A stretch of 29,482 nt of DNA, taken from NCBI GenBank assembly GCA_048886645.1, contig JBHLKN010000001.1, positions 30,732 to 60,213 on the forward strand, read 5' to 3'. The notes under the pieces are model-generated. The model made no database searches, was not told the origin of the DNA, and saw only the letters and a program-made list of their open reading frames with translations. The DNA is from Candidatus Hodarchaeota archaeon (GTDB lineage: Archaea > Asgardarchaeota > Wukongarchaeia > Wukongarchaeales > Wukongarchaeaceae). Shown here piece after piece: positions 7,753-12,885 of the stretch. Numbering within the stretch: position 1 is the first letter of the stretch; every line of letters starts with the position of its first letter. Both the position numbers and the translations under genes were made by a program.

Positions 7753-9405
7753 TTACAACATCGTGTTTTTTAAAAGCTTATCTACCGATTCTAAAAATTT
7801 TCTATTCTCTTCCAATGTTTTAGGATCCATACTTTTTCCTAATTTCTCTAAAACAATTTCTAATGCAGAACAACTTCTTACAAGATATGTAAAAGCTTCA
7901 TTAGAACTAGGATCTTTTTTAAAACCTTCCACAGCTGTTTCTACAAGTTTCCTTACCTCAGGTAAAACGATTTCCCCTATCTCTAAATTATACTCTAAAG
8001 CTTTTTCCAACGCAAAAACCACATGTTTTTGAACTTCCGGATCATCCTCTCCCAAAAAATTAATCATCAAAGGTAACGCTTTTTCACTCACCTGCGGGTT
8101 ATTATATATCAAAGTTTTAAGGATAAACGCCAACTTTTCTTTTATTTCCCAATGTTCCCATTTCCGGAAAGAAAAAAGAACATCTTCCACGATCAATTCT
8201 TCAAGCATCAACACTATCTGTATCGCTATATCCTGACTATGCCGTGCCCCCTGCTCAACAACCTTATATAACGTTTCAAAAGCACTTTTTCTAACCTCAA
8301 AATCCATATCTCTCAACAAACATTTCAAAATCTCTACCGCTTCCTTTAAAGCCATAAAATCTACGCTTACCATATCCACCAAAGAATCCGCTATTGCAAC
8401 ACGTATCTCCCTATCTCCACTTTTCAAAAAATCCTTCAGAAGTCTTAAAACCCCCCCTACAAACTCCGGAAAATTTTTAACCAAAATAGAAAGAGCAACC
8501 ACCGTTTCTTTACAAAACCTTTCTTTATCCCTCGCTAACTCCTGCATCCACAAAAAAACATCCTTCAAAACATCTTCTGAAACATTGGATATAATCTCAA
8601 TCAAACAAGAATAAGCCTTCAATCTAACATGCGCTTTTTCACTCTCAATCATCCTCCTAATAATCGGAAACAAAACAGCAATCCGATTAGGCAAACTATT
8701 TACCAATTCATTCATTATATAACAAGCATAATCTACTACAACTTCATTATCGTCAAAAACAATCTCCTTCAAAATTGAGATGGTTTCTTCTTCAAAAAAT
8801 TCCGCATTAGTCTCAACAAAAACATCTAAAGCATCCATAGCCCTCATACGCATCTCCCTATCCCCCAAAGAAAGATACCTTAACTCAGGCAATAACTTAC
8901 AAGGCAACTCCAAGTTAATCCTCGCTACTTTACGAAGAGTATTTACCGCAGCCTCCCCAACCTTAGGATCCTTATCCAAAAAAAGCCGCCTCAAAACCCC
9001 CATAACCTCCCCACCTATACCCGGATATTTCTTCAAAGCCACACACAAAGATTCAGAAGCAGTATCATACACCATAAATTCCCTACTTCTCAACAAATTC
9101 TCAAGCGTCTTAAGACTCAAAAAAGCAGTTTCTTCACTTATCGTCACTATTTCCTCCAAAAGCCCCCTAGCACACAAAAGCTGATTCCAAACCTGCTTCT
9201 CAGCCTTATCTTTAAAAACTCCCCTGTTTGCAAAATTTCTCAATTTTTTACCATAACTTAAAATCAATTCCTCAAATACACTAAGCAGATTTAAAAGAAA
9301 AGTCGCTGACCCGCTTTCTTTTAATATTTTCACAGCGTCTTTCAAATCATCTAATTTTACCTCTTGCCTAACCTTCATATAAATACGCCTTTCCCTAACC
9401 CACAT
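7753..9405 (-). CDS. Large all-alpha HEAT/armadillo-like repeat protein, function unknown
   Basis: 550-aa uninterrupted ORF with repeated helical ~35-40 aa units carrying ...VR..A...L... patterns (DREMRMRAMDAL, DREIRVAIADSL, DFEVRKSAFETL, DPEVQKHVVFAL). An alternative start is the ATG at 9378. Confidence 0.6.
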   Translation of the reverse strand: MWVRERRIYMKVRQEVKLDDLKDAVKILKESGSATFLLNLLSVFEELILSYGKKLRNFANRGVFKDKAEKQVWNQLLCARGLLEEIVTISEETAFLSLKTLENLLRSREFMVYDTASESLCVALKKYPGIGGEVMGVLRRLFLDKDPKVGEAAVNTLRKVARINLELPCKLLPELRYLSLGDREMRMRAMDALDVFVETNAEFFEEETISILKEIVFDDNEVVVDYACYIMNELVNSLPNRIAVLFPIIRRMIESEKAHVRLKAYSCLIEIISNVSEDVLKDVFLWMQELARDKERFCKETVVALSILVKNFPEFVGGVLRLLKDFLKSGDREIRVAIADSLVDMVSVDFMALKEAVEILKCLLRDMDFEVRKSAFETLYKVVEQGARHSQDIAIQIVLMLEELIVEDVLFSFRKWEHWEIKEKLAFILKTLIYNNPQVSEKALPLMINFLGEDDPEVQKHVVFALEKALEYNLEIGEIVLPEVRKLVETAVEGFKKDPSSNEAFTYLVRSCSALEIVLEKLGKSMDPKTLEENRKFLESVDKLLKNTML

Positions 9406-9860
9406 CTATACAATAGCTTCAATAATCAATTCGCCTAATTATCTTTTAAAAACACTAATTAATGAATGTAACTGAAAAAACCCCTCTCTAGAAAAATCCA
9501 CGCCCAAATTCTAAAAACCAGAAAATATACATTTTTTTGTTAAAAAATAATCAAAAAACCCTTACAATTTACAAAATTATGAAAAAGTTTATAAACCCCC
9601 AAAACAAAAAAATACACAGCGACCTTAATTGTGTTTTTACCGTCTTTTTTTTCCTTTTTACTATCTCACAAAAAACAAACTCACCCCCCCTCCCACCCAT
9701 TATACCCAAACAACATCTAAAAAAACAATATCACCCCCCCTTATTTTCCCATTTTAACCCCATACACGTAAAACTGTACCGCTAAATCCCCAACTTACAC
9801 AACATTTTTAAAAAACAATACACAAAACCGAGTTACACAAAACGATTAAGGTGCCCCTAA

Positions 9861-10307
9861 ATGTTTGTAAGACGTTGGCTCAGTCCAAGCATGCTCAACG
9901 TAACACTCTTCATCACCACCATGATGCTCCTAACACAAATACCAACTACATATTACGCCCTCCACATCCTAGAACTAAACGCCCAAGAAAACTGGCCAGT
10001 CTACACCCTACTACCCCTCGGAACAGTCCTCATACTAACAATCTCCACAATAAACCTCTCCGAAATGCTAATACTAAAAATAAAAGGCTTCGTAGACGAA
10101 AAAGAAGCAATCCTAATAACCATAATGATAACCACCATATTCTTCTACATCGGATTCTTCCTCATCGGAACAGAAATACTACAAGAAATAAACTTCATAC
10201 AAGACCGAAGAAACGTATACAAACTAGGCATCTACTACCTAACAGGAGTAACACTCGCCCTAACAACAAACAACACCATATACTCACGCCTAGAAAAAAA
10301 ACACTAA
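9861..10307 (+). CDS. Small integral membrane protein (about 4 TM), unknown function
   Basis: 148 aa with four hydrophobic stretches separated by charged loops. AAGGTG lies 8 nt upstream of the ATG. Caveat: this stretch has few G or T, so stop codons are rare and a second frame (9851..10375) is also open. Confidence 0.5.
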   Translation: MFVRRWLSPSMLNVTLFITTMMLLTQIPTTYYALHILELNAQENWPVYTLLPLGTVLILTISTINLSEMLILKIKGFVDEKEAILITIMITTIFFYIGFFLIGTEILQEINFIQDRRNVYKLGIYYLTGVTLALTTNNTIYSRLEKKH

Positions 10308-10383
10308 AAAAAAAGAAAAAAAATAAAAACAACACAAAACAAATAAAACAAAAACAACCAAAAAATAAAAACTAGAAAAAACG

Positions 10384-10396
10384 CCGAGGTAGCTTT
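10384..10396 (+). repeat. Left copy of a 13-bp direct repeat, GCCGAGGTAGCTT (orphan copy of tRNA nt 1-13)
   Basis: Exact match to 12538-12550, the first 13 nt of the tRNA. Sits exactly at the junction between the A/C-rich and T/G-rich tracts and is followed by T8. Confidence 0.6.
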
Positions 10397-10689
10397 TTTT
10401 TCTTCGTTTTTTATGTTGGGGTGGGTTTCCGCTGTGTTTTTTTGTTTTTCTCTGCGGAGATCTGTTTTTGTTTTTTGCTGTGTTGGTTAAAATATGTTTT
10501 TTCGGTGTTTCTTTTCAGGGGGGTTAAATGGGATTACACTGGTTTTTGGTGGTTGAATTTGTGGTTTTTTTACTTTTTCTTTTTTTTATTCGTTTGAAAG
10601 CCTAATATATTCACTTTTGTCCTCCTCTCCATAAAGCTTATATATGGCATATATTATATGTATGATCTATATTTTATGGGGTAAAAAAG

Positions 10690-12552
10690 ATGCGAAGAAC
10701 AGTAACAGAAGGGGGACTTTTGACCTTTCAAGGCAAACTTTTAGAGGTAAAAGAAGAAGACAGTGTTAAGATTGATGATCTTATGAGGCGGTTTCAATCT
10801 GCAAAAAGAACTGCTTTCAAAAGGCTTGTAGAAGGTGGAAATAAGAATAAAGGTTTAGAAAAAGAGCTTGTTGAGAACTTTATTCTAAATTCGGAATATG
10901 CAAGATCTGCTATCTCTGATGCGAAAGCGATAATGGATAGTCAAAGGGAACTATTACCTTACTATATTGCGAATTATGAGGGGAAGATAAGAAAGAGTAA
11001 GAAAAAGTTGGAAAAATGTCGTTCTGAGCTGAAGCAAAAAGGTCTATTCTCAAGAATAAAGAAGTATGAGGAGAAAAGAGATCTTCTAAAACTGTATTTA
11101 GAGAATGAAACCATACCTAGGGTGATATTTGGAGGGAGAAGGAACTTTGAGCTTTTCATAAAGGGAGAGATAACGAGGGAAGAATGGAGAGCGTTAAGAA
11201 CAAACCAAGTTTACAGTAAAGGCAGAGCCGTTGGAAAGGGTAATAATAACTTAAGGGTAACTTACGAAGGAGATGGTGAAAGAAATCAGTTCTACTTATG
11301 GATAAACTATCCTTCTAAAAAAGTGGGAAAGTGGGGGAGTAAACAGAAGTATAAACTTTTTGTTCCAGAACCTTTCAAGCCATACATTATAAAAAGCTTG
11401 GAGACTGAGGAAAAAGAGTTTGGAAAAAAGAAAAAGTCTAAGACTTGTACTAAAAAAGCGCACACAGTAAGGGTAATTCGCAGGAAAGGAGGGGAATATT
11501 ATGTTTTCATAACTGTGGAGGTTTTTTGTCCAGAAGAAGCTTTATCGAACGCCAAAGAAAAAGGTTTGTTGGGTTTAGATGTTAACACTAAGGGTATAGG
11601 GGCAGCAATAGTTCTCCCCAACGGTAACCTAAGAGCGCACAGATGGTTTCCATGCCACGAACTTCTATATGTAAGAAACGAAAAACGCTCGCACTTGATA
11701 GGAAATCTTTTGGTTAAGGTTTTCAGGTGGGCTAAAGGTTTCGGTGTAAACACTGTTGTTTCTGAGAGTTTTAACAGGTTTAAACGAGATCATGATACCT
11801 ATGGGAAGTTTAACCGTGCAACGCATAACTTCTGTAAGGAGAAGATGGTTAGAACCATTAAAAGTAGAGCAGTAAAAGAGAACTTTGTTCACATAGAAGT
11901 TTTCCCAGCTTACAGCTCCATAATAGGAGCAATAAAATATCAAAAAATATATGGCTTGAGTACTCATGAGGCAGCCGCTTTTATAATAGGCAGAAGGGGT
12001 TTAGGATACAACAAGGAAAGGATTCCGAAAGAATTTTCCGAGAGCTTAAAGCCAGAGGGGCGTCGCCGATGGAAGGATGACGTTGATCCTTTGGCAAGCA
12101 TCTGCCGCCAGTGGGGCGGTCTATGGAAACAAGTTTCGAAGATAAAAAACAGTTTCTTCGAAACAACAAGGGAGATACCTTTAAATCATCGCAAATTCAT
12201 AAGGCATCTCCTTATTAAAGCAAGTGGCGCTGACAGCGCGCTTCAGCTCGCGCTCTCCTACCTAAAGAAAAAGGGAGAGACGGAAGTAGAGGCAACCAAA
12301 CCGTTGTCGAGGTTCAGATCCTACCTCGACAATCTAATAAGTTTGGTCCTCGAAAACGCTGAAGAACTACGTGAGAATCGTAGCACTAGACGCAAACAGT
12401 CGCTATGCATCGTCGTAGACTTTATAAACAATAAAGGATTTTCTACCTTCACAAATCTACGATCTGAAGAAAACACCCCCAAAGGATCAAAGTCTCTAAA
12501 ACGGCATATAAGGGCTTTCAAGGGCGGTTTTCGAGCGGCCGAGGTAGCTTAG
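10690..12552 (+). CDS. TnpB/Cas12-superfamily-like RuvC-fold protein; atypical (no Zn-ribbon, degenerate RuvC-III, long C-terminal extension)
   Basis: 620 aa. RuvC-I-like GLLGLDVNTKGIGAAIV (D297, nt 11578-80). RuvC-II-like NTVVSESFNRF (E359, nt 11764-66). VFPAYSSIIG corresponds to the PAYTSQ box of TnpB. STHEAAAFIIGRRGLG corresponds to the D.NAA.NI..RG box, with T/H-E in place of the catalytic D. There is no CxxC pair between these boxes. TTATATAT at 10638-45 and GGGGT precede the ATG. Confidence 0.6.
   Translation: MRRTVTEGGLLTFQGKLLEVKEEDSVKIDDLMRRFQSAKRTAFKRLVEGGNKNKGLEKELVENFILNSEYARSAISDAKAIMDSQRELLPYYIANYEGKIRKSKKKLEKCRSELKQKGLFSRIKKYEEKRDLLKLYLENETIPRVIFGGRRNFELFIKGEITREEWRALRTNQVYSKGRAVGKGNNNLRVTYEGDGERNQFYLWINYPSKKVGKWGSKQKYKLFVPEPFKPYIIKSLETEEKEFGKKKKSKTCTKKAHTVRVIRRKGGEYYVFITVEVFCPEEALSNAKEKGLLGLDVNTKGIGAAIVLPNGNLRAHRWFPCHELLYVRNEKRSHLIGNLLVKVFRWAKGFGVNTVVSESFNRFKRDHDTYGKFNRATHNFCKEKMVRTIKSRAVKENFVHIEVFPAYSSIIGAIKYQKIYGLSTHEAAAFIIGRRGLGYNKERIPKEFSESLKPEGRRRWKDDVDPLASICRQWGGLWKQVSKIKNSFFETTREIPLNHRKFIRHLLIKASGADSALQLALSYLKKKGETEVEATKPLSRFRSYLDNLISLVLENAEELRENRSTRRKQSLCIVVDFINNKGFSTFTNLRSEENTPKGSKSLKRHIRAFKGGFRAAEVA
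12538..12550 (+). repeat. Right copy of the 13-bp direct repeat (functional tRNA nt 1-13)
   Basis: Identical to 10384-10396. Also forms the last four sense codons and part of the TAG stop of the 620-aa ORF (GCC GAG GTA GCT TAG). Confidence 0.6.
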
Positions 12553-12651
12553 CCCGGGAGCAGTATAGGTGGCATAATACGACACTTTCTCTCCGATAGC
12601 GCTGGACTGAAGATCCAGTTGTCGCTGGTTCAAATCCGGCCCTCGGCGCCA
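12538..12651 (+). tRNA. tRNA-Phe (anticodon GAA), CCA-encoded, with a non-canonical ~37-39 nt intron in the D-arm
   Basis: Acceptor stem GCCGAGG (12538-44) / CCTCGGC (12641-47). T-arm GCTGG-TTCAAAT-CCGGC (12624-40). Anticodon arm CTGGA-CTGAAGA-TCCAG (12602-18) with GAA at 12609-11 and G37. Variable loop TTGTC. D-arm 5' part GCTT-AGCCCGGGA-G, then an insert at about 12561-12597, then AGC-G26. G73 followed by CCA. Confidence 0.85.
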
Positions 12652-12729
12652 CTCCCACTTAAACTCTAAATTCTGTCTATTTATCATTAAAGAAGAAAAT
12701 TTTTAAACCAAGAAAACTGTTATGTTATC

Positions 12730-12880
12730 TGCAACGCCTGCTGGAAGTTAAGCCCAGTCACGTTTTGCCGAGTACTTCTGTGCGCGAGTCAGCGGGAAAG
12801 GTAGAAAGTTGTAGTTTCGGCCACGGCCAAAGCGCTGGGGAAACACCCGATCCCAGCCGAACTCGGAAACAGGCGTTGTA
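12730..12880 (+). other. Processing stem with a bulge-helix-bulge-like motif enclosing the 5S rRNA
   Basis: 11-bp stem TGCAACGCCTG (12730-40) / CAGGCGTTGTA (12870-80, one G-U). Then a 4-bp helix CTGG (12741-44) / TCGG (12863-66, two G-U). 3-nt bulges AAG (12745-47) and AAA (12867-69) lie on opposite strands. Confidence 0.7.
12747..12868 (+). rRNA. rrf: 5S rRNA, circularly permuted gene (3' part encoded first, 5' part second; 122 nt between the predicted BHB cuts)
   Basis: 12820-12868 is GCCACGGCCAAAGCGCTGGGGAAACACCCGATCCCAGCCGAACTCGGAA, which matches the archaeal 5S 5' third. 12747-12815 is GTTAAGCCCAGTCACGTTTTGCCGAGTACTTCTGTGCGCGAGTCAGCGGGAAAGGTAGAAAGTTGTAGT, which matches the 3' two-thirds. 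A UUCG loop at 12816-19 joins the natural ends. Confidence 0.85.
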
Positions 12881-12885
12881 TATGT

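Follow-up and report, generated by a model that had tools for sequence, protein, structure and literature searches.

A zinc-ribbon-less TnpB with the features of clade RIIIr-4 in a multicopy element abutting tRNA genes of an Asgard archaeon

What is a TnpB-like gene doing on top of a tRNA gene, and can its unusual active site still work? The question arises in a 29,482-nucleotide stretch of DNA from Candidatus Hodarchaeota archaeon (Wukongarchaeaceae; GenBank assembly GCA_048886645.1, contig JBHLKN010000001.1, positions 30,732 to 60,213), which we refer to as the window and whose own numbering we use throughout. An earlier note, made from the letters of the window alone, had described a long open reading frame with a TnpB/Cas12-like core, an altered third RuvC box, no zinc ribbon and a C-terminal extension, and had offered two readings of it: a nuclease-dead, TldR-like repurposed DNA binder, or a divergent RuvC family.

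Fold and active site of the protein

We confirmed a 620-aa open reading frame at this locus. Its kinship is visible in databases only via profiles and fold, as neither the local Pfam copy nor PHROGs nor a PDB search with the single sequence returned a useful match for the protein; the precomputed annotation is Pfam PF27229 SSO2105_N. Profile searches, which the earlier note had suggested as a check, matched NCBIfam TIGR01765 over residues 12-88 (E 1.3e-9) and TIGR01766 over residues 340-410 (E 0.002), both under the family cut-off. When a profile of the family was compared with PDB sequences, Cas12f was matched at E 1.2e-9 from RuvC-I to the 'TS' box, the match ending where the zinc ribbon would start. 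The structural check suggested alongside pointed the same way: the AlphaFold model has high pLDDT over residues 6-450, and Foldseek with this model found Cas12f, Cas12k and Cas12g, Cas12f being the best (E 2.5e-9, probability 1.0). Alignment by hhalign with canonical zinc-ribbon TnpBs of the same genome gave a probability of 97.8% and an E value of 1.3e-12. NCBIfam, PDB profile, Foldseek and hhalign all bear out the TnpB/Cas12-like core, and the 620-aa protein is predicted by model and profiles to have a TnpB/Cas12f fold. The features of the gene are as follows.

10690..12552 (+): open reading frame of a TnpB of the zinc-finger-less, Asp-to-His type, assigned to clade RIIIr-4 by profiles, fold and literature
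11578..11580 (+): D297 codon ('GLDVN' box); this RuvC-I Asp aligns with its counterpart in Cas12f and canonical TnpB
11764..11766 (+): E359 codon ('VVSESFN' box); this RuvC-II Glu aligns with its counterpart in Cas12f
11920..11964 (+): residues 411-425, a short linker in place of the CxxC...CxxC zinc ribbon (TNB domain), from hhalign gaps
11965..11967 (+): codon of H426, the RuvC-III catalytic position, opposite D355 of DRDYN in canonical TnpB by hhalign

Conservation across 172 relatives agrees with the earlier view that RuvC-I and RuvC-II are kept, position 297 being Asp in 171/172 and position 359 Glu in 169/172 and Asp in 2/172. The third carboxylate needed partial revision. The canonical Asp is indeed replaced, as had been claimed, but its place is taken neither by T425 nor by a shifted E427, both of which vary among the 172 relatives; hhalign and conservation give the H426 between them, which is His in 151/172 and Asp in 16/172. 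A subclade of the relatives has Asp at this position, and its member P0029, a distant relative of the protein, adjoins a Resolvase (serine recombinase) gene. The zinc ribbon is missing, as had been noted: the 15-aa linker contains no Cys and is aligned with gaps where a canonical TnpB encoded in this genome reads 'CYRCGEEVEKSLYIRTHKCPHCGLEI', the 'IIGAIKYQKIYGLS' segment spans the canonical ribbon with gaps in the alignment, no CxxC...CxxC occurs in the protein, and the family alignment is free of Cys pairs.

A major clade of TnpB without the C4 zinc finger and with the RuvC-III Asp changed to His has been described as RIIIr-4 and predicted to be active (Altae-Tran et al. 2023, PNAS, PMC10691335). 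The defining features of this published clade are present here, which settles the earlier alternative on the side of a divergent RuvC family, and by matching them the protein is placed as a further representative, new to a clade that is known but uncharacterised. The protein level adds little, because a zinc-finger-less, Asp-to-His TnpB clade was already catalogued. The D-E-H site may nevertheless not cut DNA. The main text of PMC10691335 contains none of the terms 'tRNA', 'TSD' and 'target site duplication', so neither tRNA targeting nor a target-site duplication is described there for RIIIr-4, and we found no published description of such tRNA-gene targeting for this protein family. It is the genomic context that gives the clade a concrete biology, with defined ends, a candidate guide-RNA scaffold, a natural target and an empty/filled pair of sites.

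The element and its tRNA junctions

The TnpB gene is the sole gene of an element of ~2.15 kb (10395-12537) that lies between two copies of the first 12 nucleotides of a tRNA-Phe gene.

10383..10394 (+): left-hand duplicate of the 12-bp target site, GCCGAGGTAGCT, an orphan of tRNA-Phe nucleotides 1-12, repeated exactly at 12538-12549
10395..10689 (+): non-coding left end, conserved in copies C121, C81, C75 and L009
12538..12549 (+): right copy of the 12-bp duplication, the functional tRNA-Phe nucleotides 1-12, which pair with the acceptor 3' strand CCTCGGC
12538..12651 (+): tRNA-Phe(GAA) gene, interrupted in the D-loop by an intron (~12561-12597), from Rfam, direct reading and stem formation after intron removal

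The sequence GCSGRGGTNNCY has two sites in the window, one in each copy of the duplication, where 0.08 would be expected by chance. The right end of the element abuts tRNA-Phe +1, and the overlap with a tRNA gene that had been noted earlier is real, as the stop codon of the open reading frame (TAG, 12550-12552) lies inside the tRNA-Phe D-loop. ARAGORN misses this tRNA because of the intron, and detected none of the intron-bearing tRNAs; for the tRNA junctions we used visual reading and Rfam, whose tRNA match here covers 12563-12648 at 34 bits. With the intron removed, the acceptor and D stems form.

The left end starts with a T-run (10395-10402), followed by an inverted repeat TCCGC (10428-10432) / GCGGA (10454-10458), in full GGTTTCCGC / GCGGAAACC, of which copy C17 has a compensating variant, TTTTCCGC / GCGGAAAA. 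An A/T-rich promoter-like module occupies ~10589-10689. The right end carries a repeat CCTCTA / TAGAGG, and no terminal inverted repeats were found at the element ends. Canonical TnpB genes on C17 and C15 are likewise preceded by the promoter-like module.

The element is multicopy. Eight matches occur in this genome (G000), with at least four copies at 73-80% identity, some with stop codons, plus remnants; nine matches occur in a sister genome. The 12-bp duplication was counted in three or four complete copies: it is 12/12 bases in the window and 11/12 in C121, where the right copy pairs with the acceptor 3' strand, and 12-14 bp in L009 and L012. A mini-element at G002:C268 also has a duplication. 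An empty site is preserved at a tRNA-Leu(TAA) gene (G000 C1:15951-15964), which holds GCGGGGGTGGCCGA once, and in its filled counterpart in the sister genome (L009 and L012) the element lies between two copies of GCGGGGGTGGCCGA, indicating that the duplication arises on insertion. The tRNA location had been called unusual for such a gene; it is systematic, as we read the right end abutting +1 at 11 different tRNA genes. Its natural target is a precise one, nucleotides 1-12 of tRNA genes, into which it inserts. No tRNA lies near six loci of canonical, zinc-ribbon TnpBs in this genome, those that share the left-end promoter module among them, the distant Asgard relatives of the protein have no adjacent tRNA, and the Ammonifex copies show neither a tRNA link nor a duplication. 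Targeting of tRNA genes is seen in this subfamily and was not found beyond it.

We considered other origins for the repeats and rejected them. A right end that carries a mimic of the donor tRNA 5' end does not fit L009, whose right 12-mer is the native empty-site sequence and unique among the tRNAs seen, nor C121, in which the left copy has drifted and not the right. An integrase-type att core is at odds with repeats that differ per tRNA, and no recombinase gene was found.

Which enzyme inserts the element? The element contains no tnpA, as the earlier note had stated. Searches for Y1 (PF01797) found none in the element or in G000, and Cas1 was likewise not found in G000, a genome that is 87% complete; serine recombinases (PF00239) were found in neither G000 nor G002. 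One insertion sequence with Y1 and TnpB is present in the sister genome. We rejected transposition by Y1 or a serine recombinase, since neither makes duplications and neither gene was found in the 87%-complete G000, and casposon-like mobilisation, given that neither Cas1 nor terminal inverted repeats were found. Canonical TnpB biology does not explain the insertion, because its Y1 and serine-recombinase partners do not make a 12-bp duplication. As such a duplication is foreign to the known partner transposases of TnpB, either an unknown enzyme or the RuvC protein itself would move these elements.

The 3' region and the possible workings of the element

The C-terminal extension (441-620) described earlier exists, and it overlaps a conserved RNA-like region. 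The C-terminal ~170 aa have pLDDT <50 in the AlphaFold model and no counterpart in the Firmicute homologues, which are ~491 aa long. The nucleotides beneath them form the following feature.

12040..12537 (+): right end, a conserved structured region and candidate omega-RNA-like scaffold under the C-terminal extension of the open reading frame, from alignment, folding and covariation

Over these positions mean column identity among six copies is 88%, with invariant runs of up to ~22 nt and no third-position wobble, as against 85% in the core coding region, where changes are 3-periodic; in this comparison, made by eye between two alignments, the 3' region exceeds the core in conservation by no more than a small margin. 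A conserved TTTATAAA box lies at 12421-12428, and conservation stops at tRNA +1. The right end folds at -163.9 kcal/mol (z = -6.3). The consensus structure has 155 pairs with 96% of cells paired, and nine pairs are changed on both sides, where shuffles gave 4.4 and slid controls 1-5, a covariation signal drawn from six sequences at 88% identity whose structure was taken from the same alignment. By folding and by analogy, the ~500-nt region resembles an omega-RNA scaffold and is a candidate for one.

The explanation we favour, at a probability of about 70%, is that an intact RIIIr-4 TnpB is the sole gene of a multicopy element that resides in the 5' end of tRNA-Phe and carries a putative scaffold RNA. 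Insertion into the tRNA 5' end duplicated nucleotides 1-12, so that the element is followed on its right by a rebuilt, complete tRNA gene and preceded on its left by an orphan 12-mer. The final ~500 nt of the open reading frame would also specify a structured RNA ending at tRNA +1, laid out as an omega-RNA scaffold followed by its guide. The protein would bind this 3'-encoded RNA and act as a nuclease through its D-E-H RuvC site, and with the first nucleotides of the adjoining tRNA gene as guide the complex may recognise tRNA-gene 5' ends, which are alike in this genus (GCSGRGGT..). Such recognition would help the element to persist and to spread among tRNA genes. The right end may in addition supply a promoter for the displaced tRNA. 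Insertion would then create a host dependence, in which tRNA genes appear reliant on the element's right end for their promoter, and the right-end remnants that precede many tRNA genes in this Asgard genus would follow from it. Parts of this scheme meet with objections. RNase P should cut at tRNA +1, which would part the scaffold from the proposed guide, and attack on naive tRNA genes is hard to square with the six left flanks, which share no obvious TAM-like motif directly upstream of tRNA +1.

A more far-reaching reading makes the RIIIr-4 protein the transposase as well. Guided by the 3' RNA, it would open an R-loop of ~12 bp on tRNA nucleotides 1-12 and cut or transfer strands at both edges, the duplication being the footprint of the R-loop and the 12-mer the next guide. 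The protein is the only gene in the element, no gene for Y1, a serine recombinase or Cas1 was found in this genome, and the RNase-H-like fold is common to DDE transposases, with the triad strongly conserved; the duplication also begins at the exact base where the putative scaffold ends, and the targets have GCSGRGGTNNCY in common. Set against this, strand transfer is known for no TnpB or Cas12, the genome searched is 87% complete, a Y1 TnpA is present in the sister genome, the Firmicute relatives lack duplications at their ends, and the reading is purely inferential. We consider it unlikely that the element is a single-protein RNA-guided transposon, hopping among tRNA genes with similar 5' ends and always rebuilding an intact tRNA gene, yet if the RuvC protein did move the element, it would be a one-protein RNA-guided insertion system.

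Readings that take the protein out of transposon biology fare worse. It could be the toxin of an RHH/MazE-TnpB toxin-antitoxin pair, a role that publications have proposed for archaeal members of the clade linked to RHH genes, and four copies (L013, L017, C59 copy A and L024) do have a 73-aa RHH-like open reading frame directly upstream; but the match to RHH_1 is weak (E 0.039, under the cut-off), the family has many copies, decayed ones among them, and such a frame is lacking from the C121, C81 and L009 copies and from that in the window, where no small RHH or AbrB gene lies directly upstream of tnpB. These copies have the non-coding left end and the duplication instead, and we regard a toxin as improbable. 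Lower still stands the other half of the earlier alternative, a nuclease-dead, TldR-like RNA-guided DNA binder, taken here to be domesticated and to regulate a neighbour such as the tRNA or orc1. The missing canonical RuvC-III Asp and zinc ribbon, the lack of tnpA and the position beside a tRNA gene and orc1 speak for it. The D, E and H/D residues are, however, near-invariant in the 172 relatives, the Asp subclade includes P0029 with its serine recombinase, and synteny with orc1 is not conserved. Copies of the gene, some of them decayed, are scattered over many loci and bounded by target duplications, and an empty site is known as well; such behaviour is not expected of a domesticated regulator. 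Judged by these sequences, a nuclease-dead or TldR-like protein is not supported, and that reading is largely refuted.

Comparison with known systems

With RIIIr-4 as published, the intact TnpB favoured here shares the TnpB/Cas12f fold, the absence of a C4 zinc finger between RuvC-II and RuvC-III, a RuvC-III Asp changed to His with the remaining triad kept, and an RHH-like gene upstream of some archaeal members. It differs in that its subfamily has a ~170-aa C-terminal extension over a ~500-nt conserved RNA-like region. TldRs resemble it in their descent from TnpB, in having a changed RuvC-III region and in lacking a partner transposase, but they have lost the active site, are immobile and keep a fixed synteny with the gene they regulate, whereas the protein here has a conserved triad, many copies and flanking duplications. 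Elements of the IS200/IS605 group (ISDra2, IS608) have asymmetric ends with subterminal inverted repeats, to which the repeats at the two ends here may correspond, and have in common with this one frequent TnpB-only copies and a structured RNA over the tnpB 3' end that stops at the element boundary, the last being a candidate feature here. Canonical members carry a zinc ribbon, a D-E-D triad and a Y1 TnpA and make no target-site duplication; in the present element the triad is D-E-H, tnpA is lacking, the duplication measures 12 bp and the junction lies strictly at tRNA +1.

Other mobile elements also use tRNA genes as a harmless landing site and keep the tRNA intact, among them Ty3, the Dictyostelium TRE retrotransposons, tRNA-integrating casposons and integrases. 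Casposons make long duplications of 14-15 bp, and both they and integrases use the tRNA 3' end. The enzymes of these elements, a retroviral-type integrase or reverse transcriptase, Cas1 or a tyrosine integrase, are entirely different from the TnpB-type protein described here. Type V-K CRISPR-associated transposons need TnsB, TnsC and TniQ, rely on a dedicated spacer, and leave 5-bp duplications at insertion sites that lie downstream of the tRNA gene. The present element, by comparison, has a single protein, an insertion inside the tRNA 5' end and a 12-bp duplication. As published, these Tn7-like transposons use Cas12k and an RNA guide to home to tRNA genes as a safe site (bioRxiv 10.1101/2021.02.06.429022). 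The two systems have in common a TnpB/Cas12-derived protein and tRNA genes as the target of the element.

A TnpB-like protein with an altered RuvC-III site

The element, an insertion at 10395-12537 beside a tRNA-Phe gene, carries a single gene.

Reading frame of the element
10690..12552, + strand: TnpB-like ORF, 620 aa, uninterrupted (ORF reading of the window)

Searches of the 620-aa protein against a local copy of Pfam and PHROGs gave no useful match. NCBIfam gave two sub-threshold matches, TIGR01765 (TnpB N-terminal domain) on residues 12-88 (E 1.3e-9) and TIGR01766 (TnpB-related) on residues 340-410 (E 0.002). Database searches returned close relatives in Asgard MAGs (74-79% identity, ~605-617 aa) and ~491-aa 'IS605 OrfB' relatives in Ammonifex, Thermanaeromonas and Desulfotomaculum (32-36% identity); nearly all matches carry the precomputed Pfam tag PF27229 (SSO2105_N). 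A profile of 20 family members matched 5,076 cluster representatives at E <= 1e-3, indicating that the family is large. Against PDB sequences, the same profile matched Cas12f (E 1.2e-9) over a span running from RuvC-I to the 'TS' box, where it ends. The AlphaFold model, whose confidence is high over residues 6-450 and low over 455-620, is similar to structures of Cas12f, Cas12k, Cas12g and Cas-lambda (best E 2.5e-9). The profile and structure searches proposed in an earlier, sequence-only note thus confirm three of its claims: kinship with TnpB/Cas12, the box order and the lack of a zinc ribbon.

That note had also recognised the last RuvC box correctly, but placed its third catalytic residue at T425 or E427, where the alignments give H426. 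Compared profile to profile with three canonical zinc-ribbon TnpBs from the same genome (probability 97.8%, E 1.3e-12), the family shows gaps across the canonical CxxC...CxxC ribbon, and HEAAAFIIGRRGL is aligned opposite the canonical DYNSAFVVLKRGL, pairing H426 with the Asp of DRDYN.

Residues at and around the catalytic positions in an alignment of 172 family members
D297: D in 171/172
E359: E in 169/172, D in 2/172
Position 426: H in 151/172, D in 16/172
T425: variable
E427: Q, E, T, H, V or I

Strong conservation of the D-E-H triad, in which a minority of members have Asp instead of His, speaks for an altered site that would still work rather than a dead one. Judged by its sequence features, the protein is a new member of a known, so far uncharacterised TnpB clade, RIIIr-4, which lacks the C4 zinc finger and has His for the RuvC-III Asp. 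Altae-Tran et al. 2023 (PMC10691335) defined five major TnpB clades, inferred the activity of RIIIr-4 from conservation, and described members linked to an RHH/MazE-like gene, read as a possible toxin-antitoxin pair. In the literature searched, RIIIr-4 is named in a single further paper, as a tree representative, and no experimental work on it was found there.

Insertion at tRNA 5' ends

The window's assembly (G000; 1.93 Mb, 87% complete), from a close relative of Ca. Wukongarchaeum yapensis, holds eight matches to the protein, at least four of them copies at 73-80% identity (contigs C1, C121, C59 and C81). Some G000 copies contain stop codons, and C-terminal fragments are also present. The sister genome has nine matches; of 39 additional genomes from the same order or phylum, only 3 hold relatives, at 33-46% identity. 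The gene is part of a mobile element rather than domesticated.

Two copies of the 12-mer GCCGAGGTAGCT flank the element, at 10383-10394 and at 12538-12549; the second forms nucleotides 1-12 of a tRNA-Phe(GAA) gene with a D-loop intron, the acceptor and D stems forming after intron removal.

Flanking repeats of other copies
C121 copy: Leu(CAA); left GCGAGGGTAGCC, right GCGGGGGTAGCC, the right one alone pairing with the acceptor 3' strand
L009 and L012 (loci in other MAGs): Leu(TAA); GCGGGGGTGGCC(GA) at both flanks
G002:C268:10900-11748 (L044, in a second genome; ~400-bp internally deleted miniature copy): Leu(TAG); repeat present, GCGGAGGTGAC / GCGGGGGTGAC
C81 and C75 copies: left repeat alone read; no tRNA assigned

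Between its duplicated tRNA 5' ends, the miniature keeps the T-run of the left end, a short interior and the right end. The tRNA-Leu(TAA) locus is empty in G000 (C1:15951-15964, outside the window), with the 12-14-mer present once, immediately after native upstream sequence, whereas in L009 and L012 the element lies at this same locus between two 12-mer copies. Insertion thus created the repeat, which is a target-site duplication.

The right-hand copy is the native locus-specific sequence of the empty site, which rules out a donor-derived tRNA mimic at the right end. At the C81 copy (G000:C81:925-1300, L004), the left repeat GCGGGGGTAGCC lies only ~50 nt downstream of an archaeal SRP RNA gene, so that a tRNA gene would have stood immediately beside the SRP RNA before insertion.

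Read by eye and with Rfam in two genomes and several metagenome contigs, the right end (consensus ...AAAGGATCRAA-CCTCTAAAA-N-TAGAGGC-N-GGGCGTTTTCCAGC) stands directly at position +1 of 11 different tRNA genes, including Phe-GAA, Leu-CAA, Leu-TAA, Leu-TAG and Ser-TGA. Many of these junctions are remnants of only 200-450 nt, and at G000:C93:3000-3500 (L043) the vestigial right-end tip GTTTTCCAGCG alone is left before tRNA-Leu(CAG). In the Wukongarchaeal genus, remnants of the right end seem to have become fixed in front of many tRNA genes.

One exception is unclear: at G002:C77:640-1000 (L037) a right-end copy is followed by ACCGAGGTAGTACCTTTTGG..., without an obvious tRNA T-arm or acceptor 3' strand, which may be a decayed tRNA or other RNA gene. 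The tRNA genes of the genus have one or more long introns at non-canonical sites (D-loop, variable region), as at window 12538-12651 and in loci L002, L006, L009, L013, L024 and L028; ARAGORN found none of these genes and Rfam only parts.

Six canonical zinc-ribbon TnpB loci in the same genome have no tRNA nearby, though some share a promoter-like module at the left end; the Ammonifex copies, which end inside the ORF 3' end, show neither duplication nor tRNA link; and no tRNA adjoins the more distant Asgard relatives. The tRNA link is thus a trait of the Wukongarchaeal subfamily with the C-terminal extension.

The module (~100 nt, A/T-rich, GTTTGAAAGCCTAATATATTCAC...TTTATATATGGCATATA) lies at window 10589-10689 and at G000 C17:28173-28268, C15:21008-21118 and C15:31207-31303. 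Together with part of the left-end G-string and hairpin it is common to the element and two different canonical zinc-ribbon TnpB families of this genome, which points to exchange of modules or to a common sequence for regulation or recognition. In the two Ammonifex degensii copies (CP001785; L010, L011), the shared sequence begins 137 nt upstream of the ORF and breaks off 45 nt short of the stop, so that each C-terminus comes from different flanking DNA; one copy adjoins a group II intron. Left of the element, the + strand of a ~1-kb stretch (9400-10380) is extremely biased to C/A (GC skew about -0.57), switching to T/G precisely where the element begins; the stretch holds only a 148-aa hydrophobic ORF (9861-10307) without family match. 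To the right, 12715-12885 (+) is 5S rRNA-like with a circularly permuted look, its 3' two-thirds preceding the 5' third, between complementary GCAACGCCTG / CAGGCGTTGT; Rfam at gathering threshold gave no 5S match there.

A candidate RNA overlapped by the ORF

The final ~500 nt ahead of the tRNA (12040-12537) are overlapped by the C-terminal extension, modelled by AlphaFold as low-confidence helices. Six copies, one frameshifted, align here at 88% mean column identity, with invariant runs of up to ~22 nt free of third-position wobble, compared with 85% and visibly 3-periodic changes in a core coding stretch of equal size. The RNA fold reaches -163.9 kcal/mol against -127 in shuffles (z = -6.3), and 96% of cells are paired across the 155 pairs of the consensus structure. 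Both-sided pair changes (for example TCGTAGAC/GTCTACGA to TCGTTGAC/GTCAACGA) number 9 against 4.4 in shuffles (1/500 reach it) and 1-5 in slid controls, counted over only six similar sequences and on a structure derived from them. Between intact copies, indels mostly come in multiples of three, and the greater part of the extension is therefore probably translated as well; the frame of the last ~25 aa shifts between copies. We read 12040-12537 as a dual-use region, a candidate omega-RNA-like scaffold overlapped by the ORF and ending exactly at tRNA +1.

Proposed working of the element

We propose that the protein would bind the right-end RNA and act as an active nuclease. A TnpB guide is whatever flanks the right end (PMC10278001), and here it would be the 5'-most nucleotides of the tRNA gene next to it. 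As tRNA 5' ends are alike in the genus (GCSGRGGTNNCY), a guide of this kind could recognise the same tRNA gene in copies without an insertion, or related tRNA genes. The left-end T-run would stop transcripts from the displaced native tRNA promoter, and a conserved TTTATAAA box ~110 nt upstream of tRNA +1 would drive tRNA transcription, which may be why right-end remnants persist. RNase P cleavage at tRNA +1 would compete with guide formation, and the six left flanks read share no TAM-like motif just upstream of +1.

Y1 and serine-recombinase partners of TnpB make no target duplication; Y1, serine-recombinase and Cas1 genes were not found in G000 at its 87% completeness, and a single complete Y1+TnpB IS is present in the sister genome. 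A self-sufficient RNA-guided transposase, its 12-bp duplication being the footprint of an R-loop, is an attractive but purely inferential explanation that we consider unlikely. More doubtful still is an RHH-TnpB toxin-antitoxin pair, for a weak RHH-like ORF lies upstream of some copies but not of the window copy. The earlier note's suggestion of a nuclease-dead, TldR-like regulator is contradicted by both the D-E-H/D triad conservation and the mobility, and is very improbable.

An element of this sort, with a precise tRNA 5'-end target and a 12-bp duplication, was not found in the literature searched. In the Wukongarchaeal genus, a TnpB of a known clade defines such an element, and the layout we propose for its 3' end is that of canonical TnpB, where the ORF likewise overlaps the omega-RNA scaffold.
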